From the NCBI GenBank assembly GCA_948466315.1, contig CAOJZZ010000001.1:16931-80930 (forward strand): DNA of 64,000 nt, given 5' to 3'. Below the pieces are notes generated by a model, which was not told the DNA's origin, did no database searches, and was given only the letters and a program-made list of their open reading frames with translations. The DNA is from an uncultured Mycoplasmatota bacterium (lineage in GTDB: Bacteria > Bacillota_I > Bacilli_A > RF39 > UBA660). Position numbers and translations under genes: made by a program. Positions 1-16,496 of the stretch are shown one piece after another (within the stretch, counting starts at the first letter, position 1; every line of letters starts with the position of its first letter).

Positions 1-1056
1 AACCTACAAATTGCATTACTATTATCTGAAGTATCATAAATTCTTTCTATAATATGACCATCAGGTAAAGAAACATAATTATCAAATTCTATCTCATAAC
101 TAGTAATCTCATCTGTTTCACGTTTTAATTCTAACATATTATAACTCTTCTTAGCAATAACCTCATTAGGTAAATTAACAAAGCTATTAGCCCTATTACT
201 ATATAATAGATTTAAAATTAATTCAATATGTTTATCATTAACCAAAATAAGATCATCTTGATAAAAACTACTAAGTAAATAATATATAATTTCTTTTTGC
301 ATATAAGAATCTTCACATTTAAACTTATTAATAAGAACATTATTATCTCTGATTACTCGTTTTAGTGCTTTATCTCTTTCCTTATCTATAAAAACACTTG
401 CTTCATTAAGCATCTCACTAAATTTCAAAAACTTTCTATGTACATTACTTTCCTCCATCTTCAAAAAAGGAAGTACATTCTTTCTATATCTATTTCTCGT
501 ATATTTATCCTTATCATTTGAACTATCTATAAAATATTTAATATTATTTTCTCTATCATATTCCTCTAATTCACTCTTTGTATAATTTATAAGAGGTCTA
601 ACTATTTTATAATCACCCATATCAACAATCATTTTAAAACCACTATACCCACTCAAACTAGACCCACGTACAATTCTCATTAATACAGTCTCTACTAAAT
701 CATCACCATGATGTGCTGTCATCAAATAATTAGCCTGATATTTATGAACTAAAGAATCAAAGAAATTATATCTAATATTTCTAGCCTCATTATGAAAATT
801 ATCATCACCATAATTTTCAATAACCATACTTTCAAAACACAAATTATTAATAAGACAATACTGCTGTATATAAGAAGCCTCATCATTACTTTCTACTCTA
901 ACATTATGATTAACATGAGCAATTATTAAAAACAAATGATATCTTTCCCTTATATTTAATAACATATCAACTAAAGCCATAGAATCTGGACCAGCAGAAC
1001 AGCCTATTACTATTACATCATTCTTATGAAATGAAAAAACATCATCTATCCTAATC
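1..1056 (-). CDS. tilS: tRNA(Ile)-lysidine synthetase TilS, partial (C-terminus runs off the window start)
   Basis: My own minus-strand translation from the ATG at 1054-1056 (preceded by GGAGG) gives MIRIDDVFSFHKNDVIVIGCSAGPDSMALVDML..., which contains the PP-loop SGGxDS-type motif. It is absent from the ORF track because it is open at the window edge. Confidence 0.8.
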
Positions 1057-1159
1057 ATAAATCATCCTCCAAAACACTAAAACATAATAAGAAAAAATTA
1101 TTAAATAACATAAAACTACTTGCTATTATAACATATTTACAAACAAAAAAAGAGATTTA

Positions 1160-1471
1160 TTATTTTTTTTCAGGTATTTTAATAATAAATTCCCCATCCT
1201 TAGAATAAAGATATTTTTCTCGAGCATACCTTGCAATATAATCTGGATCCTGTAACTTTGAAGCATCAAGTTTTAGCTCCTTTTCTCTTTCTTTTAAAGT
1301 AACTAATTTCTTCTCTAAATTTTTCTTCTCTTGATATTTATCATAAATCTCAACCCAATATTGTCCAATAGTAAACGTCATAACAATAATAACTACAAAA
1401 GAAGAAAACCCTAAAAAGAGCATTCTACGTTTCTTTTTCACCTTATTATTCTTTTTAGCCATCACCTTCAC
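1160..1471 (-). CDS. divIC: septum formation initiator DivIC/FtsB family
   Basis: 103 aa with a basic N-terminus, one TM helix and a coiled coil (KKLVTLKEREKELKLDASKLQDPDYIARYAREKY). It follows yabP-yabQ as in Bacillus. Confidence 0.8.
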   Translation of the reverse strand: MKVMAKKNNKVKKKRRMLFLGFSSFVVIIVMTFTIGQYWVEIYDKYQEKKNLEKKLVTLKEREKELKLDASKLQDPDYIARYAREKYLYSKDGEFIIKIPEKK

Positions 1472-1534
1472 CTATCTTTTCATACTACATTATAACTCCT
1501 AAATTCAAATACTTTCAACTAAAAAAGAAAAAAC

Positions 1535-1813
1535 TCACGTTTTTTTTACACATTTTTGTAAAATCAAATACCCTATATAACAACCAAATAGAAAAAGAAA
1601 CAAAAAATAAATATGAAGTATCCCCTGATTAATCTTTCTTAATATTAAAAAATATATAAATGACATATCTAAAATAAAAAGAAAAGAACAAATAACTTTC
1701 ATAATTTTTTTCCCAGTAAAAAGAATTTTATGATTGATATTAACTAATAACATAAAAATTATACCAAAAATAAAAGAAAATCCTAAAGAAAGAAGTTGTA
1801 CTTTTAAACTCAT
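1535..1813 (-). CDS. yabQ: spore cortex biosynthesis membrane protein YabQ-like
   Basis: Small polytopic membrane protein whose start overlaps the yabP stop. The yabP-yabQ-divIC order is conserved. Confidence 0.6.
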   Translation of the reverse strand: MSLKVQLLSLGFSFIFGIIFMLLVNINHKILFTGKKIMKVICSFLFILDMSFIYFLILRKINQGILHIYFLFLFLFGCYIGYLILQKCVKKT

Positions 1814-2112
1814 TATTTAAATAACCTGTTAAAAATACTATCTTCTTTATCTTTTTTAGAATTTTCATCCGCATAAGTTATACTATCAACCATTCCTTTT
1901 ATAGATACGTTTCCCTGTAAAGTATCAAGTTTCACCAATTCTAATTCACTTCCCTTAACGACCATAAACCCCATAATAGTTTCTAAAACAAATTGACTAT
2001 CATCAAAATTATCAATTTTTTTAACACCTGTAATAACTAAACTTTTTCTCTCTAATAAACTAATTCCGTGATTATAACCACTAATATTATTTTCTTGTTT
2101 ATCCATATGCAT
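1813..2112 (-). CDS. yabP: sporulation protein YabP
   Basis: The motif ...SLVITGVKKIDNFDDSQFVLETIMGFMVVKGSELELVKLDTLQGNVSIKG... matches the YabP family. Confidence 0.85.
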   Translation of the reverse strand: MHMDKQENNISGYNHGISLLERKSLVITGVKKIDNFDDSQFVLETIMGFMVVKGSELELVKLDTLQGNVSIKGMVDSITYADENSKKDKEDSIFNRLFK

Positions 2113-2176
2113 CCTCCTAAAAAAGAATATGAATAAACTTCAAAAAATAGAACAAAAAAAAGATGCTCAACACATC

Positions 2177-2452
2177 TTATTCTTGCTCATCAGATTCAGG
2201 AGCATTCTTATAAGCTTCAAGAATAGCTTCTTCAAACATAGAACGAACTTCTGGATTAATTGGATGAGCTATATCACGATAACCACCTGTAGCAGTCTTT
2301 CGGCTAGGCATTGCTATAAATAGTCCGTTATCTCCTTCAATAATACGAATATCATGTACTGCAAAACTATCATCAAGTAATACTGATGCAATTCCCTTCA
2401 TACGAGAACCCTCTTTTTCAATTTTACGTACATTTACAGATGTAATTTTCAT
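2177..2452 (-). CDS. spoVG: septation/sporulation regulator SpoVG
   Basis: MKITSVNVRKIEKEGSRMKGIASVLLDDSFAVHDIRIIEGDNGLFIAMPSRK... is a canonical SpoVG sequence. Confidence 0.95.
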   Translation of the reverse strand: MKITSVNVRKIEKEGSRMKGIASVLLDDSFAVHDIRIIEGDNGLFIAMPSRKTATGGYRDIAHPINPEVRSMFEEAILEAYKNAPESDEQE

Positions 2453-2735
2453 GCAAATTTCCTCCCTCTTAACTAAAGTATAAATACTTTACATATTAAT
2501 GATATAATAATATTAAAGAAATTGCAACATTTTTATTAAAGGATAAATATCTATTTATAACAATTTAGATAAAAACACCAAAAAAACTATCAAATATCCT
2601 TATTTTATCAAGAAAACTTACTATTCACATTTTACAAAAAAACTGTCATCACAAGGGTACAAATCTATAAAATCACTTAACCTAACTACATATTTAAAAA
2701 TACTTAAAATGCATATAACTATTGTATCAACTATC

Positions 2736-2948
2736 CTAATCTAAAATTTCCAAATTTTGAATCAACAAATCACTATAACTAAAAGAACGAATTTGACAAT
2801 TATCTATCGTAATAATAAAAATAGCTGGATAAAAAGCAGTAATAACACCATTAAACTCTTCTATTTGATTCCTAGTTCCATGAAATCTAAACAAATGATT
2901 CACTCCAATATTCTCTTTAACAATATTTCTCATCTTATCTATTGTCAT
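2736..2948 (-). CDS. veg: Veg (DUF1021) biofilm/sporulation-associated small protein
   Basis: The 70-aa ...RFHGTRNQIEEFNGVITAFYPAIFIITIDNCQIRSFSYSDLLIQ... matches Veg. It sits immediately downstream of yabG as in Bacillus. Confidence 0.8.
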   Translation of the reverse strand: MTIDKMRNIVKENIGVNHLFRFHGTRNQIEEFNGVITAFYPAIFIITIDNCQIRSFSYSDLLIQNLEILD

Positions 2949-3478
2949 CTTGGATACCCCACATACATTGTTCCATTCGTAATAATCCCTCCCATTCCAT
3001 CTTTTCCATATTTTGTTTTCTCAATAAGTCGTATTAAATCAATACTTTGATTTCTGTCAGATAACGCTAACGATGAAGCAATAATAGCTGGATCAAGTGC
3101 ATGAATATTAATTCTCTTAGGACTAGAAGCAAAATTAGCACCAGCCTTTATCAATTCTTCATAATTAGATTGACAAGCCCCAGCAATAATTATTAATTTA
3201 TCCTGACTCTTTTCATACTTTCGAGCTACCTTAACTGCCTCTATAAAATTAGCTGTATTTTGATAATTACTATTATCATTTTCATCCTTCTTTTTATCGT
3301 AATAAGCATCATGTCCAGTAATAACCACTATATCTGGTCTAAAATCCTGTAATAATCCCAATATCCTATCAGGCATCTCCATCTCTGGCAAAGTAATACC
3401 ATTAGCCTTAATATTCATATTATGATAAAAGTTCATACACCGCTCTAAATAATCACGGTCACCATCTGCTAAACTTTT
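2945..3478 (-). CDS. yabG: yabG 3' segment, the C-terminal ~175 codons of sporulation-specific protease YabG. It has no start codon of its own and is open upstream only to an in-frame stop at 3476-3478.
   Basis: DIVVITGHDAY...LIIIAGACQSNYEELIKAGANFASSPKRINIHALDP matches the YabG C-terminal catalytic region. The conserved region begins ...ADGDRDYLERCMNFYHN directly after a stop codon, so the gene is split. Its partner segment is at 13008..13316. Confidence 0.8.
   Translation of the reverse strand, partial: KSLADGDRDYLERCMNFYHNMNIKANGITLPEMEMPDRILGLLQDFRPDIVVITGHDAYYDKKKDENDNSNYQNTANFIEAVKVARKYEKSQDKLIIIAGACQSNYEELIKAGANFASSPKRINIHALDPAIIASSLALSDRNQSIDLIRLIEKTKYGKDGMGGIITNGTMYVGYPR
3458..3461. 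other. Predicted recombination core (GTCA) at the left junction of the intervening element (attL/attR)
   Basis: GTCA and a cGTCAsC.tc pattern are shared with the right junction at 13047..13050. Joining across it restores the YabG frame. Confidence 0.5.
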
Positions 3479-3708
3479 TTAAGTAAGCAAACTTATCATT
3501 AAAAGAAACATAATATTCCTAACAAAATAAAAAGTAGTCTAATTTTTCTAAACATAAAAATATAAACTACTACTAAATCATTATAATAACCAATAATTAA
3601 ACATAATAAGATAAAATACTCTATAAACAAGAAACCTTTGATAACTACTACAAATTTATCTTCAGATAAAAGAAATTAACAATATATTATATAAATAAAA
3701 AATTATGT

Positions 3709-5220
3709 CTAATCAATAGAAAAATCAAAAGATATCTGTACTGTATTATCCTTATAAATTAAAATACTATTAATCAAATAACTTATATAATCTTTTGACA
3801 AAAAAGAATTATTAATAAAATCTCTATAATAATCCATTATCCTTTCTTTTTTATATATATTATCTCTTTTAAAAAGATAACTATTAAGTAATCTTATTTT
3901 TCTATCTTTTAACTTCACCTCATAGTCCTTACTCTCAACAAATTGAGAAACTATAATCTCTCCATTTACCTTTTTCATATATAAATCTTTTATATTTCTA
4001 TCACTAAGTTCAATATCCTTTTGTAACTCTAGTATTTTAGTATCTATTCTCATCTTACTAATTAACCTACTACAAAAACTATTAACAATCACACTACCAT
4101 CAACATAATTCAATAAAATATTCATTACCTGCTTACTAACAATATCCATAAGAACACTATCATAAATAACTCTATTGCAACCTTTTTTTCTACAACTAAA
4201 ATAATATTTAATTAAGCCATCTTTCTTTTCTACCTTACATACTACCATCTTTTTACCACACTCTCCACAAACAACTAAATTATTAAAACAACCATTATAT
4301 TCAATATTTTTATATTTCTTTAATCTTTTAACTTTAGAGTTAGCCTTAGAAAATAAAATATCATCAATAATTACAGGATGAACATTATAAAGTAATTTTC
4401 TCTCAAAAATAGATATTCCCTTTCTTTTTTTATCCCTATAACTCCTTTTAAAACTCTTTCTTTCAACCAAACATCCAGTATACGTTCTATCTCTTAAAAT
4501 TCTATATATAATCTTATCTGACCACTTACAATCACCACTACTACTGACATCTTTTCTTTTATACAACTTAGGAGGCAACACTTTATCATCATTCAAACTA
4601 TAAGCAACCTCACTTCTCGTCATACCAGAAGAAATACTTTCAAAAATTCTCTTTACAATATCAGCTGCATATTTATCAATTTCTAAAGTTCTTTTATTAT
4701 TAACTTTAACAATTTTATAACCATAAGGCGCATAAGGACCAATAAATTCTTTATTAGAAGTTTTCATTCTAGCAACCAACTCTCGCTTAACAGAGCTATC
4801 CTTAACATATCTATCATTAATAATAGATTTAATTTCTAAAACTATATCCCTACTTAAACTATCAGACCGAAAACTATCATAATAATCATTAATCGCTATA
4901 TACCTAATATTATTTCTAGGAAAATATTCACTAATATAATATACAGTATCAATTGCTTCTCTTCCAAGCCTTGATATATCTTTTGTAATAATACATTTAA
5001 CCCTACCATTTGAAATATCATCAAGTAGCTCCATAAAGGCTGGTCTCAAAAAATTAATTCCCGAATAACCATCATCTACATATTCCTTATCAATAACAAA
5101 ATTATTTGAAAGAGCATATTCCCTAATCAACACTAATTGGTTATCTATACTAACAGAATTATCCTGAACAGAACCTAAATCTTCAGAAGAGACCCTAACA
5201 TAAGCACATACATGTTCCAT
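3709..5220 (-). CDS. large serine recombinase (resolvase N-domain, recombinase domain, zinc ribbon, coiled coil)
   Basis: 503 aa. The N-terminal AYVRVSSEDL contains the catalytic Ser, followed by DDGYSG...SRLGRE. A zinc ribbon CGECGKKM...C..C is present. Confidence 0.9.
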   Translation of the reverse strand: MEHVCAYVRVSSEDLGSVQDNSVSIDNQLVLIREYALSNNFVIDKEYVDDGYSGINFLRPAFMELLDDISNGRVKCIITKDISRLGREAIDTVYYISEYFPRNNIRYIAINDYYDSFRSDSLSRDIVLEIKSIINDRYVKDSSVKRELVARMKTSNKEFIGPYAPYGYKIVKVNNKRTLEIDKYAADIVKRIFESISSGMTRSEVAYSLNDDKVLPPKLYKRKDVSSSGDCKWSDKIIYRILRDRTYTGCLVERKSFKRSYRDKKRKGISIFERKLLYNVHPVIIDDILFSKANSKVKRLKKYKNIEYNGCFNNLVVCGECGKKMVVCKVEKKDGLIKYYFSCRKKGCNRVIYDSVLMDIVSKQVMNILLNYVDGSVIVNSFCSRLISKMRIDTKILELQKDIELSDRNIKDLYMKKVNGEIIVSQFVESKDYEVKLKDRKIRLLNSYLFKRDNIYKKERIMDYYRDFINNSFLSKDYISYLINSILIYKDNTVQISFDFSID

Positions 5221-5221
5221 A

Positions 5222-6787
5222 TTAAACTAAACAATCCTCAACCTTTTTAAAATTATAATATATTCTAACACACTTATCCTTATCAATAGTAATTTTATTA
5301 ATTAACTCCCTGATTAAAAGTTTATTAAAACCTCTTCCCTCTAAAAAATCACTTATTATCTTTTTTCTAATATTAATATCTCTATTTTGCTCATTAAATA
5401 AATTTATCTCTTCTCTTAACTTAACAATAGAAGAAGATATCTTATCTCTATCGCTTACTAAAAATTCTTTAATTTTAATAAATTCACTATCTAAAATAAT
5501 TCCATTACTCTTATCCTTATATAAAGAAGCAATACTCTTATCTATTTCTCTAAGTTTAACAAGATCTTTTCTTAATAAATTCTCATTATACTCAATAAAA
5601 CTACATCGATTAAAAATTTTTTCATATTCTTCTAAAAGTCTATCAAAACAAACATACTTATTTAATAAATTCTTAATCTCACCTAAGACAAGTTCATTAA
5701 GCAAATCTTCCCTGTAATAATGCATAGTACAAACATTATTTCTATAAGTAGCATAACTTCTACAACAATATATAGCATAAACCTCATCTTTATAACGCTT
5801 ACATCTTCTTACTAGCATCACCTTACCACAATCTGCACAAACTACTAAGCCTTTCAATAAGTAATCATATTTTCTTTTTCTAATATCATAATAAGAATTT
5901 TTACAATTAACTCTTTCAAAAACTTCATAAGAAATAATAGACTCATGATTATTTTTATTTATAATCCACTTTTCCCTAGGTAGAAGTACCCTCTTCTTAG
6001 ATTTTAAACTAACACGTTCATACTTCCCTTGAACTAAAGTACCAGTATAAACCTCATTACTTAAAATACCTTTTATAGTAGAAGCTTTCCACAAATTAGT
6101 GGTAAAATTTTTACTAACATTTCTACCTTTATATAGATTAGGAGGTAAAATCCCCCTATCAGTAAGATTCCTAGCAATCATCATAGTAGAAAAACCCTTA
6201 TCTCTCATAGAAAATATTTCTTTAACTATTAAAGAAGCATATTCATCAATTACCAATAAACGACTATCTTCTAAAGACCTTTTATATCCATATGGAACAG
6301 AACTGCCAACATACAAACCTTTCTTCATTAAACTATGCCTAGCACTCTTTATTTTTCTAGAAGTATCTTTTAAATACATGTCATTAATTACAGTTTTAAA
6401 AGGAATAATATCTTCAACCCCATTAGAATTAAAAGAATCATAACCCTCAAGTATTGCTATAAAACGAACATTATGTTCTGGAAAATATTTAAATATATAA
6501 TTACCTGTTTCAATAAACTCTCTACCTAACCTTGAGGTATCCTTAACAACAACGCAATTAACAAATCCATTCTCAATATCTTGAATTAATCTTTTAAAAC
6601 CTGGTCTCAAAAAATTCCCACCAGAATAACCATCATCTACATAATAATCATATATTTCTATTCCTTTACTTTTAACATATTCACTTATATAACTTTTCTG
6701 GTTAACTATACTAGAACTTTCAAATTCCTTATCATCATCCCTAGACAATCTAATATATAAACCAGCCTTATACTTAAAATTATCCAT
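5222..6787 (-). CDS. large serine recombinase, second of a tandem pair in a ccrA/ccrB-like arrangement
   Basis: 521 aa. The N-terminal LYIRLSRDDD contains the catalytic Ser, followed by DDGYSGGNF...SRLGREF. A zinc ribbon CADCGKVM is present. There is a 1-nt gap to the downstream recombinase. Confidence 0.9.
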   Translation of the reverse strand: MDNFKYKAGLYIRLSRDDDKEFESSSIVNQKSYISEYVKSKGIEIYDYYVDDGYSGGNFLRPGFKRLIQDIENGFVNCVVVKDTSRLGREFIETGNYIFKYFPEHNVRFIAILEGYDSFNSNGVEDIIPFKTVINDMYLKDTSRKIKSARHSLMKKGLYVGSSVPYGYKRSLEDSRLLVIDEYASLIVKEIFSMRDKGFSTMMIARNLTDRGILPPNLYKGRNVSKNFTTNLWKASTIKGILSNEVYTGTLVQGKYERVSLKSKKRVLLPREKWIINKNNHESIISYEVFERVNCKNSYYDIRKRKYDYLLKGLVVCADCGKVMLVRRCKRYKDEVYAIYCCRSYATYRNNVCTMHYYREDLLNELVLGEIKNLLNKYVCFDRLLEEYEKIFNRCSFIEYNENLLRKDLVKLREIDKSIASLYKDKSNGIILDSEFIKIKEFLVSDRDKISSSIVKLREEINLFNEQNRDINIRKKIISDFLEGRGFNKLLIRELINKITIDKDKCVRIYYNFKKVEDCLV

Positions 6788-6795
6788 AAAAGCCC

Positions 6796-6915
6796 CTATT
6801 TTTCAGTTTGTCTTTCTAATACATATTTTTCAAACAATTCTAATATTTTTTTATTAATATCAACCCCTTCATCATCATATACTGCTAAAACTAAATTATC
6901 TCTTTTTTTCATCAT
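6796..6915 (-). CDS. small ORF (39 aa) immediately upstream of the recombinase pair. It is a candidate excision-directionality or regulatory protein.
   Basis: My own translation: GGGAGG then ATGATG gives MMKKRDNLVLAVYDDEGVDINKKILELFEKYVLERQTEK*. It ends 8 nt before the recombinase ATG. It is too short for the ORF track. Confidence 0.3.
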   Translation of the reverse strand: MMKKRDNLVLAVYDDEGVDINKKILELFEKYVLERQTEK

Positions 6916-7731
6916 TAGCCTCCCACCTAAACATATGAACCTAAGTTTATGTAAAGACCAAAATTCAATCACCAAAAAACAGCATAGATTTTTCTATACT
7001 TTTTTTGAATATATATTGATATAAAAAATTTAAAAATATAACAATTACTAAGAAAGCTATTGTACTAGTAAAATATCGACACCAATAACTCCCTTTGCCT
7101 TAAAAAATTATAATTAATTTTTATTTTTTAAATAAATTTGCACAATAAAACTTATAATTATTAAATTTAACTTAAAAACTAAATATTTATAACAAATTAC
7201 CTAAGTAATTTACAATTAATAGATAAAATACGATCATGCTAAACTATTATCCATTAACTTCTATCAATTCATTAAGTTTAGAACCATTATAATTAATTTT
7301 ATTTAAATATTTATCAAAAGTATATTTTAATACAGTAAGATATATAAGATTGGGCCCTAAACCTTACAAAATAACTATAAAAGTCTAATACTTCTAAAAA
7401 TACTTATATTATCAAAACTATAATACTTAATTAAACATTAATTTACTTTTAAACAATTAATACTATGCATCAATCCCTTAGAAAATAATTGGATAAATTC
7501 TAGATTCGACTATAACTATTTTGACTAACTTAACAAAAATTCACTTAAGAGCTAGAACAAAATAAAACTATTAAATATATGAAAATATCCAAAAAAGAAT
7601 CAATATATATAATTTAATAACTACTAAGTATAAGCAGCAATACCAATAGTTACAACCAAATTTCTACAAAACATTACATTTAAACTTAAATTTAACTATT
7701 TTCAAATACTAAAACTATAAAATATTTATTA

Positions 7732-10700
7732 TTATACACTATCAATAATATCTAAAAATTCAGTATCCGTATCAATGAGTCGATTAATTAAATTATTAAA
7801 AATATGACTCATATTATTTATATAATTAGGATAAAAACCCATAGAGATTGGCACATTGTAATAACTAATATCGTCAATATTCCTAATATATAAATCTTTA
7901 TCTAAATAATTATCTTTTATAAAGATACTACATAACTCTTCTAAACCAAAGTATTCTACCATACTTTTATTATATTTAGGACCTGCCCTAGATGGAAATA
8001 ACATTTTAGTAATACATTTTGATAAAATTGAAAGATTTTCTAATAAAATATTATTATCAACATTATATTTATCAATTAAACTATTTCCTAATAACAAATT
8101 AATCTTTTTTAATTTATCTCTTAATTTAATAATACCCTGATTTTTGATAAATCCTAAATTACTAATAATAACAATATCTAAAACATCTTTTAATTCATAA
8201 TTAGAATAACTATCTATCAAATTACTCATATTTTGAATATTATAACTATTATTAAATTGACTATTACTTACACTATAAATACCATTTGAATATTCTATAT
8301 TTATAAATTTATTAACATTTGCTAAAGATCCATCACTAAATAATATTTTAGTGACAATTAATTGATAAGTATTATTATTCTCTATTGGTATAACTACCTT
8401 ATATAAAAACTCATCATCAAAAAACACCTCATAAAATATATCATTAATACAAATCTTACTAATAGATACATTTTTATTATGAATAATATTGAAGTTAAGA
8501 GCAATATAATCATTTAACTCGTGATTTAACGAATCACCAAATACATTTAAAATATCAACATGTGTCTTTGCTTCCACTTCTTTTTCAAATAACACAGTCT
8601 CGTTATTATTCACCTGACTAGAAAAACCAATAATTTTTACTATATACTTAGAAGAAATATTAGTATCAAAATTCTCCTCTATTTTATTATTATTAAAATC
8701 CTTAGTATTAATATCCTTAGAATCAATTACCATTCCTTTATCATCTAATAATACCAATTTAACTTTATAAATACTATTATCTTTATCATTTAATTCTGCT
8801 TTTACTAATAATCTATATAACTCTATATTCTCTTCTACTGAAAAATTCAAAATACTAGCCTTACGTTTAACTACATCAATATCTAATTTCTTTTCCTCAT
8901 CAAATATTATTCTTTTTCCGTTATCTAAGACAACCCCTTCAATATATATATCCTGTTTACCCAATTTATTAAACTGTAAAATAACCGCACTATAAATATC
9001 TCCATCTTTTATAACATCATAATATTTCCCATTAACTATTACTTTTTCTACAAAACATAAACTATTATTAACACTAGAAAAAACAATTTTTGGACTTTGT
9101 CCTTTTTCAAAGATATTAGTAGTATCAACACCATTAGTAATTACAATATTATCTATCTTAAATTGATAATCTTCCACTAATTGTAATTTTTTAGTAGTCT
9201 CTACTACATTTTTATGACTAATTTCACTAGTACCTGATTTATCCATATCTAAATCATATTTCAAAATAAATTTAACATTATATAATTTTCCAGCCTCAAC
9301 TGGAATAAAAATACTATTTTTCCCCTTTTTAATTGACTTACTATCAATAATATTGCCTACATCATCATCTACTCTAATAATAGAAGAAGAAATACTATTA
9401 TCATCATCTATTAAATTAAATGATAAATTTATCTTTTTTTCATCAACATATTCTTGCGTTATATAATTATCTATTCTAGGAACATCTTTTAAAACCTTTA
9501 TTTTTCTTGTATAATCAACATCTACTCTGTTACCATTATCAAATAATACCTCTGTAAAATGATATTTCTTAATCCCAGATGAATCACCAGTATTTACTCT
9601 TACTGAATATTGACTGTTACTATCAAAAACTTTATCTACCTTATACTTAACTCCATCTATTACAACTTCCACTATATTAAAATCATTTCTAACTCCTGCA
9701 ATAAATGATAAATCTATATCTTCATCTTTATTAAATGTTTCCTCCTCAACCTGCTTTATAGTAGATAAATTAACCTCATTTACTAAATCACCATCAATTT
9801 TCTTATTCAATCTTGATAAATCAGTAATTGTAATACTTTTATCATTATTTATATCGGCATTTTCTAAAGCTTTATCATCTAAAGATTTTATCTGAGTTAA
9901 ATGATACTCTAATGAGTCAACATCCAGATAATCTATTACACCATCATCATTTAATTCTCCCTTTTGCATAAATTTATAATATAATGAACTACATACTATA
10001 AGTCCTTGCAAAAACACTAATAAAGCTACTATAAATGCAAAAATTTTCTTATTACTATAATCATCGTCATAATAATAATCACTACTAAATCTTCTAATAA
10101 TTGCATATATTATAATTACTAATAAAAATACAACCACCAAGATTATTTCATTAAACTTACTTTTCTCTTGGAAATTACTAACTACTTTAAAATTTTCATT
10201 AATATAAGAAGATTTAATTGTATCTTTAGTAGTAAAATTACTATTTAAATGCTCTACTTTAGAATCATCTAATTTCCCACTATCATTAATAACATCTACT
10301 TTAACAATCTTATCATCAATAAATAAATCTTTTCTACCATCGGAGGCAACAATATCTTTTAACTTTATTTCTGTTGTACCAATATCAACATCATTTCTTA
10401 CCTTAAAACTAATTACTAACAAATCTTCTATCTTTTCATTACCATCTTTTCTAATAGAAACAAACTCACCTGTAATTTTATTATATTGTAAATTCCCCCA
10501 ATAGTTTTGACATAAAAAATCTTTCTCCGATAATTCCTCAAAAATATTTTTATTATAATCAAGTCTTGCTTTATAAGCATTAATACCGAGACCATCTTCC
10601 ACATATTGCTCTAACTTTAAAGTAACAACTAAAGTCTGACCACTTTTTATTTTCTCTTGATTAATACTTGCAGCAAAATCTAATTTAGACTTAGCCAATA

Positions 10701-10767
10701 CTGGTATAACAGAAAAAAGCAGCAAAAAAACAATAAACATTATGGTTATGTTAATAATTTTTTTCAT
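7732..10767 (-). CDS. large membrane-anchored surface protein with signal peptide, a cohesin-like N-domain, two TM helices and a dockerin-like Ca-binding repeat pair
   Basis: Signal peptide MKKIINITIMFIVFLLLFSVIPVLA. TM helices at ~aa 205-225 and 240-262. Dockerin-type loops: NDDGVIDYLDVDSL and DINNDKSITITDLSRL. The C-terminal ~700 aa is repetitive and beta-rich. Confidence 0.55.
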   Translation of the reverse strand: MKKIINITIMFIVFLLLFSVIPVLAKSKLDFAASINQEKIKSGQTLVVTLKLEQYVEDGLGINAYKARLDYNKNIFEELSEKDFLCQNYWGNLQYNKITGEFVSIRKDGNEKIEDLLVISFKVRNDVDIGTTEIKLKDIVASDGRKDLFIDDKIVKVDVINDSGKLDDSKVEHLNSNFTTKDTIKSSYINENFKVVSNFQEKSKFNEIILVVVFLLVIIIYAIIRRFSSDYYYDDDYSNKKIFAFIVALLVFLQGLIVCSSLYYKFMQKGELNDDGVIDYLDVDSLEYHLTQIKSLDDKALENADINNDKSITITDLSRLNKKIDGDLVNEVNLSTIKQVEEETFNKDEDIDLSFIAGVRNDFNIVEVVIDGVKYKVDKVFDSNSQYSVRVNTGDSSGIKKYHFTEVLFDNGNRVDVDYTRKIKVLKDVPRIDNYITQEYVDEKKINLSFNLIDDDNSISSSIIRVDDDVGNIIDSKSIKKGKNSIFIPVEAGKLYNVKFILKYDLDMDKSGTSEISHKNVVETTKKLQLVEDYQFKIDNIVITNGVDTTNIFEKGQSPKIVFSSVNNSLCFVEKVIVNGKYYDVIKDGDIYSAVILQFNKLGKQDIYIEGVVLDNGKRIIFDEEKKLDIDVVKRKASILNFSVEENIELYRLLVKAELNDKDNSIYKVKLVLLDDKGMVIDSKDINTKDFNNNKIEENFDTNISSKYIVKIIGFSSQVNNNETVLFEKEVEAKTHVDILNVFGDSLNHELNDYIALNFNIIHNKNVSISKICINDIFYEVFFDDEFLYKVVIPIENNNTYQLIVTKILFSDGSLANVNKFINIEYSNGIYSVSNSQFNNSYNIQNMSNLIDSYSNYELKDVLDIVIISNLGFIKNQGIIKLRDKLKKINLLLGNSLIDKYNVDNNILLENLSILSKCITKMLFPSRAGPKYNKSMVEYFGLEELCSIFIKDNYLDKDLYIRNIDDISYYNVPISMGFYPNYINNMSHIFNNLINRLIDTDTEFLDIIDSV

Positions 10768-10900
10768 ACCATTCTCCCCCCAAATTAGCTATTGCCTAAT
10801 ATACTAATATAAAATCAACTAACTTGCAAACATTTTTTCTCTAAATAAAGAAAATATCAATAAAAACTACTATAATTAAACAAGTTTCCTCTACTTTAAC

Positions 10901-12214
10901 TTATTTTTTACTTTCAGCACTATTAACATTTCTATCAGAAAAACGTCTTACAAAACTTTTTACCTCTTCATCAAAACCACTATAACAAATACTACTATCT
11001 AAAATATCAAAATTACTATCTAACATAATATTTTTATTAGGTAATACATCTAACTCTAAGATTTTCTCAATTTTCAATCTTTGTCTATAAAAACCATATA
11101 TTTGTTCAACTTTATCTAAAGTTGTAAATTCTTTTATTACATTAGTCATATCAGCTATTATATTACTTAAATTTTCTGAACCTATAACTTTATAATAATT
11201 TTTTAAATTATCATTTCGAGAATCACACAACTTTGTATATACTATATAGTACTCATCCTCTGCCAAATTACTCTTCAAAAAAGATAGCAAAGTTCGCAAT
11301 TTAGGCTCAATTACAACAAGCATTCTATCATCTACAACTTTATTTATAGGATTTACTACACCATTTCTTTGTATTACTTCAAAAATAGGTTTAAGTTTCT
11401 TTAACGCTTTTGACTCAAGTTGATTAATTCTAACCCGCGTTAACTCTAAATCCTTACCAACCTCTTCCTGTGTCTTAGCAGGACTTTTTATTATTCTATT
11501 ATAAATAATATAATAATCTCTTACACTCAAAACATTATATAAAGTCCTTAAAAGAATTAATTCATCATATTCTCTTTCAACGTCTAAATAAACATTTTCT
11601 CCATATGAAACAGTATCAATTAATTCCTCGTCTAGATTATCAGGTAATTTTTGATTTAATGATAATGTATCAAAAGAACTTTCCCTTTCTATATACTCTA
11701 AAAAACTATCACTAATTTTTAAGTGCTTAATTAATTGATTCCTTGTAGGATATACACCATTATCTCTAAAATATTCTTGAACATATCTCGAATATTTTCT
11801 CCTCTGACTATTAAAACGCACTGACAATTTCATATTTTTATCAATTTTATCAATATTTCTTTGTAATGATTTTTCCATTGCATAACCTAAATATGTAGAT
11901 AATTTAACTCCTTTATTTATATCAAACAATCTAACTGCATTCATTAAAATTAAATTATTCTCTTGAATTAAATCTAAAAAATCAAGATTACTACAATTAT
12001 TAATAAAGCTACCTGCTTTAAAAAAAGCTAAGCCTAAATTATGTATTACTAATCTTTGAAATGAAGTTAAATCACCATCTATTTTATACCTTTTTAATAG
12101 CTCTTCTGTCTCCTCACCTGTTAATAAAGGATAATTCTTCATATCATCAATATATATATCAATTATTTCTAAACTTCTACTCTTATACATATACTTTCCC
12201 CTCTTTTTCGTCAT
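10901..12214 (-). CDS. sigma-70 family RNA polymerase sigma factor with a ~150 aa C-terminal extension
   Basis: Region 2-like LTSFQRLVIHNLGLAFFKA and FDINKGVKLSTYLGYAMEKSL. Region 4 HTH TQEEVGKDLELTRVRINQLESKALKKLK. Confidence 0.65.
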   Translation of the reverse strand: MTKKRGKYMYKSRSLEIIDIYIDDMKNYPLLTGEETEELLKRYKIDGDLTSFQRLVIHNLGLAFFKAGSFINNCSNLDFLDLIQENNLILMNAVRLFDINKGVKLSTYLGYAMEKSLQRNIDKIDKNMKLSVRFNSQRRKYSRYVQEYFRDNGVYPTRNQLIKHLKISDSFLEYIERESSFDTLSLNQKLPDNLDEELIDTVSYGENVYLDVEREYDELILLRTLYNVLSVRDYYIIYNRIIKSPAKTQEEVGKDLELTRVRINQLESKALKKLKPIFEVIQRNGVVNPINKVVDDRMLVVIEPKLRTLLSFLKSNLAEDEYYIVYTKLCDSRNDNLKNYYKVIGSENLSNIIADMTNVIKEFTTLDKVEQIYGFYRQRLKIEKILELDVLPNKNIMLDSNFDILDSSICYSGFDEEVKSFVRRFSDRNVNSAESKK

Positions 12215-12346
12215 ATTATATCATATTAACTAAAAAGAAAAAAGAAAAAGCTTAAAAAGTTATTAAATATTTGACACTTACACAAAAATAGTAGAAAATT
12301 ATAGACAAAACAAAAAAAGAATCACTAAATGAATTCCTTCTTTTTA

Positions 12347-12808
12347 CTACCCACAAAGTAATTTACAATATTTGGAAAATAACTTATAAGTATCAGGATT
12401 TTTACTAATAAATTCAATATTAGAAAAATCATAGTTAACTGCATTTTTTGATATTTCTTCTAATATACTTTGATCTTTAGTATATATCTCAACAAAAACA
12501 TTATCAACTATAAATATGATAAGTTGGCAAGAACTTTTTAAAAATTGATTATAATTCTCAATATCATCTATATCCTTATTTTTGTAATGCATCTGTAAAT
12601 TTAAAAAGATTGGATAGTGTTCTTTTTGAATAATCTTTCGAAACTCATCGTTATTATAATTAGTTTTCTCAAAAAAAGCTTTTCCTTGTTCTCCCAAAAC
12701 TTCCTCATTCTCTATTTTCCACATATATTGTGAACAATCTATATCATGAAGTATTTTAGCCAAAATTTTACTATATTCATTTTTTATTATAAACTTTATC
12801 CCTATCAT
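12347..12808 (-). CDS. hypothetical protein (element cargo)
   Basis: 153-aa ORF with no recognisable motif. Confidence 0.4.
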   Translation of the reverse strand: MIGIKFIIKNEYSKILAKILHDIDCSQYMWKIENEEVLGEQGKAFFEKTNYNNDEFRKIIQKEHYPIFLNLQMHYKNKDIDDIENYNQFLKSSCQLIIFIVDNVFVEIYTKDQSILEEISKNAVNYDFSNIEFISKNPDTYKLFSKYCKLLCG

Positions 12809-13007
12809 AAAACCTCCTCAGATGTTAAAAATTAAATCATTAATTTCTACACAGTTCTTATGTTATGTAATGTTGATCAAAATTAATATTAAATTTAGTT
12901 ACTTAAGCATACGTCAGCCCCCTGTTTAGGAGAGCAATTTTTTTTAAAATTTTGGCGTTTTTTGTCATTTTAGAGATTTTTTTATAATTTTCTATTTTTC
13001 ATTTTCT

Positions 13008-13316
13008 TTATTTTATAAAGGTTTCAGAGTGGTTACTTAATCGAACGTCAGCGTCAATATGCAAAATCTTACCAGGTAAATAAAAATACTGACTTCTATC
13101 TATCTTTATATCTTTAACATTACGTTCAATTACCTTTTTATCATAATCAGTATCACCTCTACCAGCCTTAACTAAATCATCTACCTCACAATCAGCATAA
13201 AGTCTTAAATCTACACCTTTCAAAATAGCAACATTACCTTCAAAATCTATAATTTTAAATAAAATATCATGCTGATGAGATATTCGTGTAACAAAATCTC
13301 CAATTCTAAAATCCAC
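13008..13316 (-). CDS. yabG: yabG 5' segment. ~90 N-terminal YabG codons are fused to 12 element-encoded codons (VRLSNHSETFIK*).
   Basis: MDFRIGDFVTRISHQHDILFKII...LRLYADCEVDDLV...YLPGKILHIDAD matches the YabG N-terminus (QIGDMVARKSYQMDVLFRII...HMPGKVLHLDGD). It is directly downstream of ksgA as in Bacillus. Confidence 0.8.
   Translation of the reverse strand: MDFRIGDFVTRISHQHDILFKIIDFEGNVAILKGVDLRLYADCEVDDLVKAGRGDTDYDKKVIERNVKDIKIDRSQYFYLPGKILHIDADVRLSNHSETFIK
13047..13050. other. Predicted recombination core (GTCA) at the right junction of the intervening element
   Basis: acGTCAgCgtc here compared with cgGTCAcCatc at 3456..3466. Confidence 0.5.
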
Positions 13317-13535
13317 TCATATCATCTCCACTTAACTTTATGCCAAAAAATTAGAAATAACACATATTTATAGTAATAAAACAACTATAACCAACATATT
13401 AACAATTATTATTGAGACAACAATGTCAAAAATTATAAACTAAATTATTCTATTTTATTTACAAAAAGAAATCATTAACTCTTCATAAAATACAGACAAC
13501 AACTTATAATTATTTTTATCCAATACTCTACTTTA

Positions 13536-14363
13536 CTATTTTTCTAACAATGCATTAGCAAGAACTACAAAAATTTCTACATCTATTTCTTCTGCTCTAA
13601 CATTTAAATCAAATCCATAATCGTTTAATACCTTACTAACTATATCTAAATTATAATTTTTTAAATTATTACGTATTGTTTTTCTCTTATATTGAAAACT
13701 ATCTCTAACCAATTTTTCAAAAAAAGAAACATCCCTAGCAACAACCAAATTATTTCTAGGAACAAAAGAAAGAACAACACTATCAACATTTGGTACAGGA
13801 ATAAATTGACTTCTAGAAACAGACATTTCTTTTTTTATATTAAAAAAATATTGCAACAATACACTAATAGAACCATACTCCTTACAACCACACTTTGTAG
13901 CAAATCTCTCCCCCACTTCTTTTTGCACCATTACTACTATTTTCGTAAAAGAAAGACCACTATTTATAAGCTTCAAAATAATAGGCGTTGTAATATAATA
14001 AGGAACATTGCTTACAAAATACAAATAATCATATGAAAACAACGATATATCACTAATAATATCAGACTGTAAAAAATCTTGAAATAAAACTGAAACATTC
14101 TTACAATCTTCCAATCTCTTTTCTAATTCACTCTGTAACTCATTATCAATTTCATAAGCCAAAACATTATCAGAAACACTAGCTAATTCTCTAGTCATTA
14201 TTGCACCACCTGGTCCTACCTCAATTACTAATGATTTAGAATTAATATCAGCAATTCTTACAATCTTTTTTACTATATTTACATCTTTTAAAAAATTTTG
14301 ACCATATCTTTTCTTAAATTTAACATCATAACTTTCCATAATAATAATTAATACACTCCTCAT
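13536..14363 (-). CDS. rsmA: 16S rRNA (adenine1518/1519-N6)-dimethyltransferase RsmA/KsgA
   Basis: GQNFL motif and SAM-binding VIEVGPGGAIMTREL. Confidence 0.9.
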   Translation of the reverse strand: MRSVLIIIMESYDVKFKKRYGQNFLKDVNIVKKIVRIADINSKSLVIEVGPGGAIMTRELASVSDNVLAYEIDNELQSELEKRLEDCKNVSVLFQDFLQSDIISDISLFSYDYLYFVSNVPYYITTPIILKLINSGLSFTKIVVMVQKEVGERFATKCGCKEYGSISVLLQYFFNIKKEMSVSRSQFIPVPNVDSVVLSFVPRNNLVVARDVSFFEKLVRDSFQYKRKTIRNNLKNYNLDIVSKVLNDYGFDLNVRAEEIDVEIFVVLANALLEK

Positions 14364-14447
14364 CCTTATTTTATAAAAACTTAAAGCAAATTCATTTTAA
14401 TATCACTACATAAAATATACTATAAAAATTAAAAAAGAAAAAGGAAT

Positions 14448-15080
14448 TTAAATAATTTCTAACTCCTCTTTCTGACTTGATATCATGACTCTTCCAATAT
14501 TACAAACAACAGCTATTAAAATAGGAATTATTATTGAAAAAACAAATCCAAAAGGTGTAGACAAAAATTTTTGAATATATCCAAGTTTTGGAATTTTAAA
14601 AATAACTTTCCCATAAACATCATTCCCCTTTACCAAAGCTGAATCTTCTAAATAATTATTATCTCCTTTAGTCCTATAAACATAGTCCCCTGTTTGTGAA
14701 ATTTGCTTACCAACTATTCTATGAGTAACAGTTAATCCTGTATAATTAGGATCACTAGAAGAAAAAGTTATAATATCACCTATTTCCAAATTATTATCTT
14801 TTACCCTCTTTACAACAATAGCATCATTAATCTTTATTGTAGGTACCATACTTGGAGAAACAATTACATATGCCCCAAAAAGAGGAAGCTTATTATTACC
14901 TACCTTAGTATTATATAATAAATCACCAAAATAACACACGAAAAAAATTAAAAGTAGAAAAAAGAATACAAATACCGCAATCAAAAAGGCCTTAACAGCA
15001 AAATGACCAAGATACTTTATTTTTTCATATGACGTCATAAATTCAGGGTTATCTTTATTCTTAACTGCCTGTACAACCAT
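14448..15080 (-). CDS. sipW: SipW-type (ER/archaeal-type) signal peptidase I with a C-terminal membrane anchor
   Basis: VSPSMVPT (catalytic Ser), ITFSS, THRIVGK (His), YRTKGDNN and a C-terminal TM helix. It resembles B. subtilis SipW rather than P-type SipS. Confidence 0.75.
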   Translation of the reverse strand: MVVQAVKNKDNPEFMTSYEKIKYLGHFAVKAFLIAVFVFFFLLLIFFVCYFGDLLYNTKVGNNKLPLFGAYVIVSPSMVPTIKINDAIVVKRVKDNNLEIGDIITFSSSDPNYTGLTVTHRIVGKQISQTGDYVYRTKGDNNYLEDSALVKGNDVYGKVIFKIPKLGYIQKFLSTPFGFVFSIIIPILIAVVCNIGRVMISSQKEELEII

Positions 15081-15195
15081 ACTCTCACCTACCTCTATTC
15101 TTCCTTTATTATAATACGTTCACACAAAAAAAACTAGAATTTAACAAATAAAAAAATAACTTGACATGAAATTTAAAAAACAAAAAATGATAAAG

Positions 15196-15801
15196 CTACT
15201 TTGCCATACCATTAACAACAACATGAACTGAATAATTCTGAGTTACTCCTTCAGGAATAAGAGCAGTATCTGCAATCCACATTCTCAAACGATAATTTTC
15301 TATTTTACTCTTCTTATTCTCCACCTCAGCTATCAGCATAGAACCTTTTGGAGAACCGATTTTACTCTTTTTAGTTAATGACTTAAAACTAGTTGGTCCA
15401 AAACATTCTACATAAGTACCATTAACCTGTTTCTCTAAATAAACTTTTATATTATCGTCCATTGCTGTAGAATTTGCTCTATCTTTAATCAATGCTATTT
15501 CATATTTTGTCTTAGCCCCATGCAAAACATCAGTTTTAATAGTAAAATCAAAATACTTATCAGCACCATTTTGAGTCATACCTAAAGAATCTGTAGTAGG
15601 AACTGCATTAATAATTGACAATTCATTTGTATCATCAGTATAAGTCATAGAAACATCCCCACCATCAATTTCTCTCATTCTAATCTCTTTTGGACTACTA
15701 AAAAAGAATACAAATGAAATAATTAATATTAAAAAACAAAATGAACTAATTCCTATTATTCCAAATAAAACTTGCTTTGATATTATTTTTTTATTATCCA
15801 T
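15196..15801 (-). CDS. N-terminally anchored or secreted protein, a paralogue of the next gene and a putative SipW substrate (TasA/camelysin-like operon context)
   Basis: N-terminal TM/signal segment. The C-terminal motif YRLRMWIADTALIPEG is shared with its paralogue. It lies directly upstream of sipW. Confidence 0.4.
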   Translation of the reverse strand: MDNKKIISKQVLFGIIGISSFCFLILIISFVFFFSSPKEIRMREIDGGDVSMTYTDDTNELSIINAVPTTDSLGMTQNGADKYFDFTIKTDVLHGAKTKYEIALIKDRANSTAMDDNIKVYLEKQVNGTYVECFGPTSFKSLTKKSKIGSPKGSMLIAEVENKKSKIENYRLRMWIADTALIPEGVTQNYSVHVVVNGMAK

Positions 15802-15809
15802 ACAACCTC

Positions 15810-16385: not shown

Positions 16386-16496
16386 GCTTACCACCCCAAT
16401 AAAGACACCGACAAAGAAAATTTGATACCCCCACAAAGTATCATTATTACTACCAAAAAAAGATACCCTACTATCACATAAAGAGTACCACAAAAA

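Follow-up and report, generated by a model that had tools for sequence, protein, structure and literature searches.

The yabG gene, which codes for a spore-coat protease and lies on the minus strand of the window (the whole stretch of 64,000 nucleotides that was analysed), is split by a 9,589-bp element (13055 minus 3466) carrying two tandem large serine recombinases. This raises the question of what the element does to the gene, and at which nucleotides it would be cut out. Gene-splitting elements that are cut out in sporulation are a classic programmed DNA rearrangement. We consider it very probable that the present one is a non-phage integrative cassette of 9,589 bp inserted in codon 88 of yabG, with exchange at TC and precise restoration of a 260-aa YabG. 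The element, its boundaries, the exchange point, a natural empty site and the family-wide conservation of both target and module are established here.

The split gene was identified as yabG by both TIGR02855 and PF05582, with the recombinases encoded inside the element, and the insertion point is codon 88, the Asp of the conserved H-I-D-G-D motif. The gene halves and the dinucleotides at the two junctions are:

2945..3464, minus strand: C-terminal part of yabG, host DNA, from position 3 of codon 88 to the stop codon, reading ...(D)GDRDYLERCMNFYH...
3465..3466, no strand: left crossover dinucleotide, TC on the plus strand, GA of Asp88 on the coding strand
13054..13055, no strand: right crossover dinucleotide, TC on the plus strand, GA on the coding strand
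13056..13316, minus strand: N-terminal part of yabG, host DNA, codons 1-87 and GA of codon 88

The C part matched Peptidase_U57 at profile positions 119-280 (E=5.7e-64) and the N part at positions 2-69, the interrupted ORF of the latter extending into the element up to a stop at 13008. A contig 99.9% identical to the window (L085) has its first base exactly at window 3466, and four contigs on the yabG-N side (L094, L096, L097, L100) are 99.8-100% identical up to the right junction.

An empty site from the same species was found on contig L094 (Logan SRR22050017), which matches the window flank at 99.8% identity over 5 kb and reads ...TTGCATATTGATGGTGACCGTGATTATTTAGAGCGGTGT. Its codons CAT ATT GAT GGT GAC CGT (HIDGDR) correspond to the N-side flank through GA followed by the C-side flank starting from GA. 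The final 30 nt of L094 recur at the start of L085 and at the end of L111, all in one sample; this overlap is an assembly-graph branch with the occupied and the empty forms both present. A chimeric assembly path is impossible because attL and attR have at most 4 nt in common. Only this contig spans attB, reaching just 30 nt past the junction, and the strain with the empty site could be a rare one in which the element was never present or has been lost. The restored ORF of 260 aa has the same length as 80 intact relatives, and with Gly after Asp88 it scored 291.5 bits on TIGR02855 (spore_yabG; cutoff 270.4), the match being continuous over the join. A reading of the sequence alone had proposed that excision restores yabG precisely, without a frameshift and with the length and spacing seen in B. 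subtilis; the in-silico join and the L094 junction support such a restoration, the length being also that of the relatives.

Inside the element, the genes of a fixed module lie side by side:

3709..5220, minus strand: large serine recombinase B, 503 aa, adjoining the att site, with Resolvase, Recombinase and Zn_ribbon_recom domains
5222..6787, minus strand: large serine recombinase A, 521 aa, assigned by its Pfam domains
6796..6915, minus strand: conserved 38/39-aa ORF (MMKKRDNLVLAVYDDEGVDINKKILELFEKYVLERQTEK) with the RBS GGTGGGAGG, a candidate directionality or accessory factor

The two recombinases are 35% identical to each other, and their genes, 1 nt apart, are predicted to be co-transcribed. 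Both contain the PF00239 catalytic domain (E about 1e-18 to 1e-19) and PF07508. PF13408 gave 45.7 bits in the 521-aa protein and 24.3 bits in the 503-aa one, just below the cutoff of 25.3; the Zn-ribbon cysteines are invariant in the family alignment and kept in both proteins, including the shorter one. Alignment of 10 family sequences from both paralogues showed that Y7, R9 and S11 of the Y-x-R-x-S motif are invariant. Domains, catalytic motif and short att sites identify both proteins as large serine recombinases, predicted to catalyse attP x attB and attL x attR recombination. Recombinase A has about 4,000 homologues. For the recombinases, the best matches among solved structures were the TnpX N-terminal domain (E=1.6e-30) and SprA (E=2.2e-20), and phage relatives of the recombinase were at most 36% identical. 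Membership of CcrB (NF047343, 102.9 and 100.2 bits for a cutoff of 900), of CcrC (82.4 bits for a cutoff of 900) and of XisF was rejected on score. The small ORF, which lies upstream of the recombinase A gene in all family members examined, has five invariant residues and gave no match in Pfam or PHROGs. We infer that both recombinases act together and that the small ORF codes for a directionality factor. Scans for sigma-70 promoters and terminators stayed at shuffle background, with no sporulation-type promoter assignable; the sequence CATAwrTTTA upstream of the small ORF was discarded as a -10 box, being too near the RBS.

The remaining genes are cargo:

7732..10767, minus strand: secreted or membrane protein of 1011 aa with a dockerin domain (Dockerin_1, E=4.4e-6)
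10901..12214, minus strand: sigma-70-family protein, 429/437 aa, with Sigma70 regions 2 and 4 (phrog_351) and a C-terminal extension
12347..12808, minus strand: DUF2691 protein, 153 aa (PF10903, E=3.4e-32)

The sigma-70-family protein gave weak RpoD/RpoS-type matches, far under the curated cutoffs, and was rejected as an MZA-type (anti-phage) sigma factor (76 bits versus a cutoff of 800). PHROGs matches in the element were limited to this protein and the two integrases, with no structural or lysis genes.

The element is a member of a widespread, apparently undescribed family in which a fixed module (the ORF of about 40 aa and two recombinases) always lies at this yabG codon. The recombinase pair was kept in all relatives checked. 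Relatives of recombinase B with at least 36% identity were always found just upstream of the yabG C fragment, and all 13 metagenome loci defined by this identity on a contig reaching past the recombinase gene were in yabG at the same codon, with the same module. Among distant homologues of recombinase A (48-57% identity), the three checked were all paired, with the same module and codon. The element ends of relatives read (T/C)C(A/C)GCA|GA|TGGnGAy. Cargo is highly variable among relatives, two diverged cassette lineages occur within one species, and tandem arrays of two different cassettes were found in four contigs (L101, L106, L107, L108). In one relative (L131), recombinase B is fragmented and the junction duplicated.

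In the mechanism that we propose, strand exchange by the recombinases would take place at a 2-bp core that is not palindromic and reads 5'-TC-3' on the plus strand of the window and 5'-GA-3' on the yabG coding strand. Excision would yield attB, ...CAT ATT GAT GGT GAC CGT..., and with it an intact 260-aa YabG reading HIDGDRDYLE, together with a 9,589-bp circle whose attP would read ...CGAACGTCAGCG-TC-TGCTAAAC... We give about even chances to excision being timed to sporulation in the mother cell, because of the analogy with skin, SPbeta, gin and yin.

The same element with the same TC crossover might otherwise be a mere mobile cassette of the SCC type using yabG as a landing site, its excision being sporadic or linked to transfer and its carriers functionally yabG-null or delayed. 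The variable cargo, the two-cassette arrays and the two diverged lineages in one species point to active horizontal mobility, and the absence of a sporulation promoter in the scans fits this reading too. So does the predicted circle junction (AGCAGACGCTGACGTTCGATTAAGTAAC), with 0 matches in metagenome_contigs, viral_contigs and all collected loci. yabG is moreover dispensable for spore formation in model organisms. The same was reported for C. botulinum (PMC10747680). However, the occupied state predominates in the species (8 of 8 informative C-side contigs and 6 of 7 N-side contigs), with no assembled intact gene, and empty and occupied junctions were found together in single samples. Both yabG halves are also open, intact and restorable in frame, here and in diverged carriers, and the published precedents skin, SPbeta, gin and yin all excise during sporulation (PMC10747680, PMC5595907, PMC4191935). 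On balance we regard the mere mobile cassette as possible but unlikely.

A defunct insertion, with yabG reduced to a pseudogene in this organism, is highly improbable: the damaged relative L131 and the lack of an assembled intact yabG of this species would agree with it, but the recombinase genes, the small ORF and the yabG halves are full-length and 99.6-100% identical across many samples, the catalytic residues are invariant, an empty site exists and junction partners are shuffled among samples. As to intact copies, the collection of 15 billion proteins contained no same-species YabG above 90% identity, the best match being at 90%, and exact look-up in the protein collection returned neither the Gly nor the Ala version of the restored protein.

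An integrative cassette whose excision would restore yabG precisely leaves the question of the exact exchange point. The two junctions share four in-register dinucleotides, namely GT, TC and CA within a GTCA and the separate TC at 3465-3466 / 13054-13055; any of these gives identical length and frame, and therefore frame and length cannot discriminate between them. The crossover is the separate TC, 4-7 nt away from GTCA. At the exchange point, nothing but GA/TC is common to the natural attB, attL and attR, and in several samples contigs start or end exactly at GA. L097 stops at ...ATTGA (...CATATTGA); the first bases are GACGCTG... in L109 and L179 (GACGCTGACG) and GATGGTG... in L085, and L106, L108, L176 and L178 each begin precisely 30 nt (k-1) ahead of the base following GA. 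At the junctions, those of tandem arrays included, three left partners (yabG-N, the end of element 1 and the end of element 2) combine with yabG-C or three element-start variants as right partners, the swap being always at GA. The same boundary was found in about a dozen distant relatives.

The half-sites of the element are:

3467..3495, no strand: P' half-site forming the element's left arm, TGCTAAAC...; its distal motif TTAAGTAA occupies 3479-3486
12898..12918, no strand: second, internal occurrence of the right-arm half-site, lying some 135 nt within the element and reading GCTGACGTATGCTTAAGTAAC on the coding strand
13032..13053, no strand: P half-site forming the element's right arm, CGCTGACGTTCGATTAAGTAAC on the coding strand; its distal motif TTACTTAA occupies 13033-13040

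The distal motif of the left arm is the inverted-repeat partner of 13033-13040, and a proximal motif CAGCA/CCGCA directly adjoining GA is kept in about 12 related elements. The right arm is missing from the empty site and kept as YGCTGAY...TTAAGTAAC in four related loci (L091, L095, L114, L115); the internal copy is likewise present in L091, L114 and L115, where it varies together with the arm of the element concerned. The predicted attP, CAGCG-TC-TGCTA, comes close to a palindrome with TC at its centre: AGC/GCT lie next to TC, and TTACTTAA/TTAAGTAA lie at 13 and 12 nt from it. Its ungapped dyad score at TC is 11/24 (background 7.1 ± 2.3, P about 0.07), which, given the 1-nt offset of the distal repeats, is no more than suggestive; attB scored 4/24, without symmetry. 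No flanking repeats above background were found at the element ends. The first reading of the sequence, by which the att sites are of the serine-recombinase type, their core very short and long direct repeats absent, is thus supported, the core being 2 bp.

The sequence-only reading had placed strand exchange within GTCA, quoting for the junctions atcacgGTCAccatctgc (3452-3469) and cgaacGTCAgcgtcaat (13042-13058), both of which are present as given. The two copies are:

3458..3461, no strand: left GTCA, inside yabG (codons Gly89-Asp90, GGT GAC on the coding strand), unchanged in L094
13047-13050, no strand: right GTCA, inside the element right arm

Such an exchange would produce attB CATATTGACGCTGACCGT (HIDADRDYLE) and attP cgaacGTCAccatctgc, with AGCAGATGGTGACGTTCG at the circle junction and GACGCTGACCGT in restored yabG, and we give it next to no chance. 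No in-register identity between the two junctions is longer than GTCA; joining across it in silico gave a 260-aa ORF reading ...HIDADRDYLE..., in frame, as long as the 80 intact relatives and passing the YabG model at 287.9 bits, and HIDAD occurs naturally in 2 of 65 relatives. However, random pairs of 20-nt segments from this AT-rich sequence have 4 nt or more in a row in common, in register, in 11% of cases, so that GTCA is no more than chance would give; this speaks against it as a core. The same-species empty site has GATGGTGAC, not GACGCTGAC (it reads CATATTGATGGTGACCGT in place of CATATTGACGCTGACCGT), and the attB of the GTCA model is missing from all collected loci. Contig breakpoints and partner swaps in tandem arrays are at the separate TC, related elements with different arm sequences all switch at GA, and a GTCA crossover would leave a grossly asymmetric attP (inverted repeats at 7 and 18 nt). 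The restored protein should consequently read HIDGDRDYLE, with Gly in 62 of 65 relatives and likewise in the B. subtilis sequence (HLDGD) that had been quoted; the invariance of Gly89 is strong, not absolute, and was not used as sole argument. For attP, cgaacGTCAccatctgc is replaced by ...cgaacgtcagcgTCtgctaaac... under the TC crossover. GTCA is half-site recognition-sequence mimicry, with yabG DNA on the left and a look-alike element arm on the right. The cGTCAsC.tc pattern described earlier is real, but it reflects this similarity of yabG half-site and element arm on one side of the crossover. A junction lying elsewhere, or a frameshift, had been named as what would overturn the GTCA proposal: the junction does lie elsewhere, with frame and length as predicted.

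The data show a non-phage, two-recombinase family at one exact yabG codon in many uncultured gut bacteria, with att sites defined to the nucleotide. The case also cautions that the longest string common to two junctions need not be the crossover. The cooperation of two serine recombinases outside staphylococcal SCC elements, the role of the conserved partner of about 40 aa and the gating of spore-coat maturation by DNA excision in gut commensals all become testable, and the family is a source of orthogonal combinations of serine integrase, attB and attP for engineering. Tentatively, the element might belong to a large undescribed SCC-like family that has specialised on one GA, in the Asp codon of the yabG H-x-D-G-D motif, across gut spore-formers with YabG proteins just about 40% identical to one another. 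Its cassettes, stacking in tandem and nearly fixed here, would form a developmental switch on spore-coat maturation, with the small protein as directionality factor and the internal arm copy as accessory site.

The sole published yabG-interrupting element is the yin prophage, from a single strain of Clostridium botulinum, V73, for which growth-phase-dependent excision was shown experimentally (Douillard et al. 2023, PMC10747680). Like the present element, yin interrupts the yabG coding sequence and encodes a large serine recombinase; it leaves as a circle and restores yabG (PMC10747680). In contrast, yin is a prophage-like relative of Caudoviricetes that has a single recombinase and carries a 14-bp repeat at its ends, whereas the 9.6-kb element has no phage structural or lysis genes and combines two recombinases, an ORF of about 39 aa and a 2-bp core. 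yin was moreover reported as unique to one strain (PMC10747680), whereas the present family is widespread.

In skin (SpoIVCA/Skr), SPbeta (SprA/SprB) and gin (GirC/GirX), an element-encoded large serine recombinase precisely rejoins a split sporulation gene (PMC4191935, PMC5499854, PMC5595907, PMC5025042), and a small directionality factor is expected here too; gin is also small and non-phage. Their targets are sigK, spsM and gerE, not yabG, and each has a single recombinase, whereas the two paralogues found here (35% identical) are always co-inherited. Timing and directionality factors are experimentally established in those systems; here the timing is drawn from analogy and the factor is a candidate.

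Like the staphylococcal cassette chromosome SCCmec (CcrA/CcrB), the element has two tandem large serine recombinase genes and is inserted site-specifically into a single conserved chromosomal gene; in both, the cargo varies and lacks phage genes, and different cassettes form tandem arrays at one site. The recombinases are, however, not Ccr orthologues (100-103 bits on the CcrB model, cutoff 900), and the hosts are gut spore-formers instead of staphylococci. SCC inserts at the 3' end of rlmH (orfX) without inactivating it, whereas the present cassette lies in mid-gene and splits a developmental gene at yabG codon 88.

The 9,589-bp element splits the minus-strand yabG, and both junction strings quoted in the sequence-only reading, which placed the crossover in a shared GTCA (3458-3461 and 13047-13050), were found at their positions in the window. 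The neighbouring genes, ksgA/rsmA upstream and veg, spoVG, yabP and divIC downstream, fit the expected yabG locus, and all the element genes share the direction of yabG.

Features of the yabG locus and of the inserted element (window coordinates)
2945-3436, minus: yabG C-terminal ORF, Peptidase_U57 (YabG peptidase family) profile positions 119-280, E=5.7e-64
3709-5220, minus: recombinase B, last gene of the element, nearest the yabG C part
5222-6787, minus: recombinase A
6796-6915, minus: 39-aa ORF with a strong RBS
6976-7731: gap of 756 nt free of ORFs of at least 30 aa, separating the dockerin-protein gene from the recombination module
7732-10767, minus: 1011-aa dockerin-bearing protein
10901-12214, minus: sigma-70-family protein
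12347-12808, minus: DUF2691 protein, first gene from the yabG-N side
13008-13316, minus: yabG N-terminal ORF, Peptidase_U57 positions 2-69

Joining of the flanks across GTCA gave a 260-aa ORF reading ...PGKILHIDADRDYLERCMNF... A scan with one genome per species yielded 80 intact relatives (best 84% identity), from uncultured gut Bacilli and 'Tenericutes'-labelled MAGs. Since nearly all of them matched over residues 1-260, the closest being gap-free around the junction, the proposed in-frame join and unchanged length were upheld. The host, from uncultured lineages of the gut (labels 'Bacilli', 'Tenericutes', 'Mycoplasma sp. CAG:877' and 'Candidatus Faecimonas'), carries yabG, spoVG, yabP, a yabQ-like gene and divIC (window 1-16500; loci of the intact relatives, L001-L080), a gene content that implies a sporulation programme in a group often taken for mollicute-like.

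Frame and length do not distinguish between cores. The junctions are in a single register (13055 - 3466 = 9589) with four in-register shared dinucleotides, namely GT, TC and CA within GTCA and a separate TC at 3465-3466 / 13054-13055, and every one of them restores the identical length and frame; two 20-nt windows drawn at random from the same sequence share an in-register run of 4 nt or more in 11% of cases. The join motif of the relatives was H-I-D-G-D in 62 of 65, with Ala in two, and the left junction, read in frame on the element side, gives A-D-G-D, which together pointed to exchange at GA in the first Asp codon (TC on the forward strand). Among these 65 relatives with the motif found, two have HIDAD and one HVDSD, and the loci L130 and L131 have D-S-D, so the Gly is not strictly essential; such target-site variants might alter susceptibility to the cassette.

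We then compared same-species contigs, drawn from many samples by exact look-up of the adjacent Veg and KsgA proteins. The element was present in all eight contigs informative on the C side, and of the N-side contigs five had the window's element, L095 had another element variant and L094 (Logan SRR22050017) was uninterrupted. The latter contig, 99.8% identical to the window flank over 5,033 nt, ends in ...CCTGGTAAGATTTTGCATATTGATGGTGACCGTGATTATTTAGAGCGGTGT and consists of the N-side flank through ...CATATTGA followed by the C-side flank from GATGGTGAC..., the sole overlap of the two flanks being GA on the coding strand. L085 opens, and the element contig L111 closes, with the same 30 nt that end L094, all three contigs coming from one sample; this is what a k=31 assembly graph shows at a branch where attB and attL enter the same downstream sequence. 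Because the two junctions have at most 4 nt in common, a chimeric path is ruled out and reads with the empty junction must exist. We regard this assembled junction as the decisive evidence for exchange at TC/GA; the attB string expected under GTCA exchange, CATATTGACGCTGACCGT, was in none of the loci examined.

In other samples, contig termini also fall at GA: L097 terminates in ...CATATTGA, L109 and L179 start with GACGCTGACG..., L085 starts with GATGGTGAC..., and the starts of L106, L108, L176 and L178 lie exactly 30 nt ahead of the first base after GA. To the left of GA stands yabG-N (...CATATT), the end of the window's element (...GTTTAGCA) or that of another element (...AACCAGCA); to the right stands yabG-C (TGGTGACC...) or one of three element starts (CGCTGACGTT..., TGCTGACATT... 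and TACTGATTGC...). Seven pairings were observed, tandem arrays of two different cassettes among them, a modular swap at GA. Exchange at TC would give CATATTGATGGTGACCGT as attB and TTTAGCAGACGCTGACGTTCG as attP, compared with TTTAGCAGATGGTGACGTTCG as attP for GTCA. In the predicted attP, ...GGTTACTTAATCGAACGTCAGCG-TC-TGCTAAACTTTTTTAAGTAAGC..., the core is flanked by AGC/GCT, and the inverted repeats TTACTTAA/TTAAGTAA lie 13 and 12 nt from TC; with a crossover inside GTCA they would lie 7 and 18 nt away.

The GTCA core thus gives way to TC at 3465-3466 / 13054-13055, on the evidence of the empty site, the contig termini, the modular junctions, the attP symmetry and the boundary of the cassette family. 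The left GTCA is yabG DNA (codons Gly89-Asp90, GGT GAC) still present in the empty site, and the right one belongs to the element (arm CGCTGAC). The half-site on the yabG side, TGGTGACC.GTGATTA, resembles the element arm CGCTGACGTTCGATTA, as expected if one protein domain reads both, and this likeness accounts for the noted 'cGTCAsC.tc' pattern and for the HIDAD followed by a stop in the truncated N fragment; the right-hand TC sits within the second 'gtca' of the quoted string (13053-13056). The restored product is HIDGDRDYLE and not the HIDADRDYLE first proposed: on the curated equivalog model for YabG (cutoff 270.4) the Gly version scored 291.5 bits, with a match continuous over the join, and the Ala version 287.9 bits. 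The proposed attP is replaced by ...GTCAGCG-TC-TGCTAAAC... What survives of the sequence-only reading is that the att sites are of the serine-recombinase kind and that restoration is precise and in frame; its specific core does not.

The two recombinases are 35% identical, and both contain resolvase, recombinase and zinc-ribbon domains with the Y-x-R-x-S serine motif. The predicted catalytic serines are Ser11 in the 503-aa recombinase B and Ser15, within Y-I-R-L-S, in the 521-aa recombinase A. Orthology to Ccr or XisF was rejected on model scores, and their best relatives of solved structure were TnpX and SprA. PHROGs gave no phage-type genes in the element apart from the integrase and the sigma factor, and no phage recombinase more than 36% identical was found. 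The ~39-aa ORF, kept with five invariant residues in every family member examined, had no match in Pfam or PHROGs. A CATAwrTTTA motif (window 6916-6945, minus), conserved in the loci L114 and L115, lies 3-6 nt upstream of its RBS; it resembles the -10 box of a sporulation sigma factor, but the RBS is too close and this assignment was rejected. A second direct copy of the right-arm half-site, and of the half-site only, was seen at 12898-12918 (GCTGACGTATGCTTAAGTAAC vs CGCTGACGTTCGATTAAGTAAC at 13032-13053), ~135 nt inside the element. L091, L114 and L115 have such an inner copy ~135-150 nt inside their yabG-N-side ends, co-varying with their own arm; this copy may serve as an accessory binding site or be left over from an old tandem junction.

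About 4,000 homologues of recombinase A were found. The three on long contigs (57, 56 and 48% identity) are all paired and preceded by a 38-42-aa ORF, and these pairs lie directly upstream of a yabG C fragment, with the N fragment further upstream in two of three and different cargo in each. An alignment scan of metagenomes with recombinase B gave 57 loci; at 36% identity or more, all 13 whose contig runs past the recombinase gene continue into a yabG C fragment that begins at residues 83-88, and none of the more distant loci does. The stacked junctions read (T/C)C(A/C)GCA-GA-TGGnGAy on the C side and CAT xTx-GA-YGCTGAY on the N side, so that the attP core, CAGCA-GA-YGCTG, is conserved and nearly palindromic about GA. 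Two different cassettes stand in tandem inside yabG in L101, L107, L106 and L108. In L101 (1-6000, junction ~5745-5760) and L107 the second cassette lies upstream of the window-type element, joined at GA, and the same observation covers the starts of L106, L108, L176 and L178 and the end of L095; the second cassette encodes a sigma70_r4_2 protein, a PemK-family toxin, a 41-aa ORF, 530- and 520-aa recombinases and a 165-aa resolvase fragment. L131 has a 300-nt direct repeat (99% identical; 5896-6195 and 8856-9155, 2,960 nt apart) duplicating the element arm and the start of the yabG C part, with recombinase B split into two ORFs; decay of the element or an error of assembly may lie behind this. 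Judged from these loci, the two-recombinase cassettes form a widespread family dedicated to one yabG codon, which is of more interest than the core prediction.

The assembled sequences establish the element boundaries, the 2-bp exchange point and the attB sequence, as well as the conserved target and module, the presence of both empty and occupied junctions within individual samples and the tandem stacking. By established serine-integrase chemistry, recombinase dimers would bind and synapse attL and attR, cleave at TC with a 2-nt stagger, rotate and religate, giving a restored yabG and a circle of 9,589 bp, with the orientation fixed by the non-palindromic TC. CcrA and CcrB act as a hetero-complex, and by analogy the two recombinases may do so too; the ~39-aa protein is, likewise by analogy, a candidate directionality factor. 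The trigger may, again by analogy, come in the sporulating mother cell, where skin, SPbeta, gin and yin are excised (PMC4191935, PMC5499854, PMC5595907, PMC10747680). Programmed, or at least regular, excision is favoured by the nearly universal occupied form in the species, by both yabG halves being intact here and in diverged carriers, and by our finding no assembled intact yabG of the same species. No attP junction was found in metagenome_contigs, viral_contigs or the loci examined and no sporulation promoter could be assigned in our scans, both of which argue against programmed excision. The rival reading, an SCC-like cassette excised independently of development, seems less likely but keeps some weight.

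The yin element of C. botulinum V73, which is prophage-like with one serine recombinase and 14-bp end repeats, also interrupts yabG (PMC10747680); we found no other report of a yabG-interrupting element in the literature, and yabG is absent from a large survey of gene-interrupting islands (PMC7192596). The cassette family operates like skin, gin and yin, is like SCC in architecture and belongs to neither the yin nor the Ccr family.
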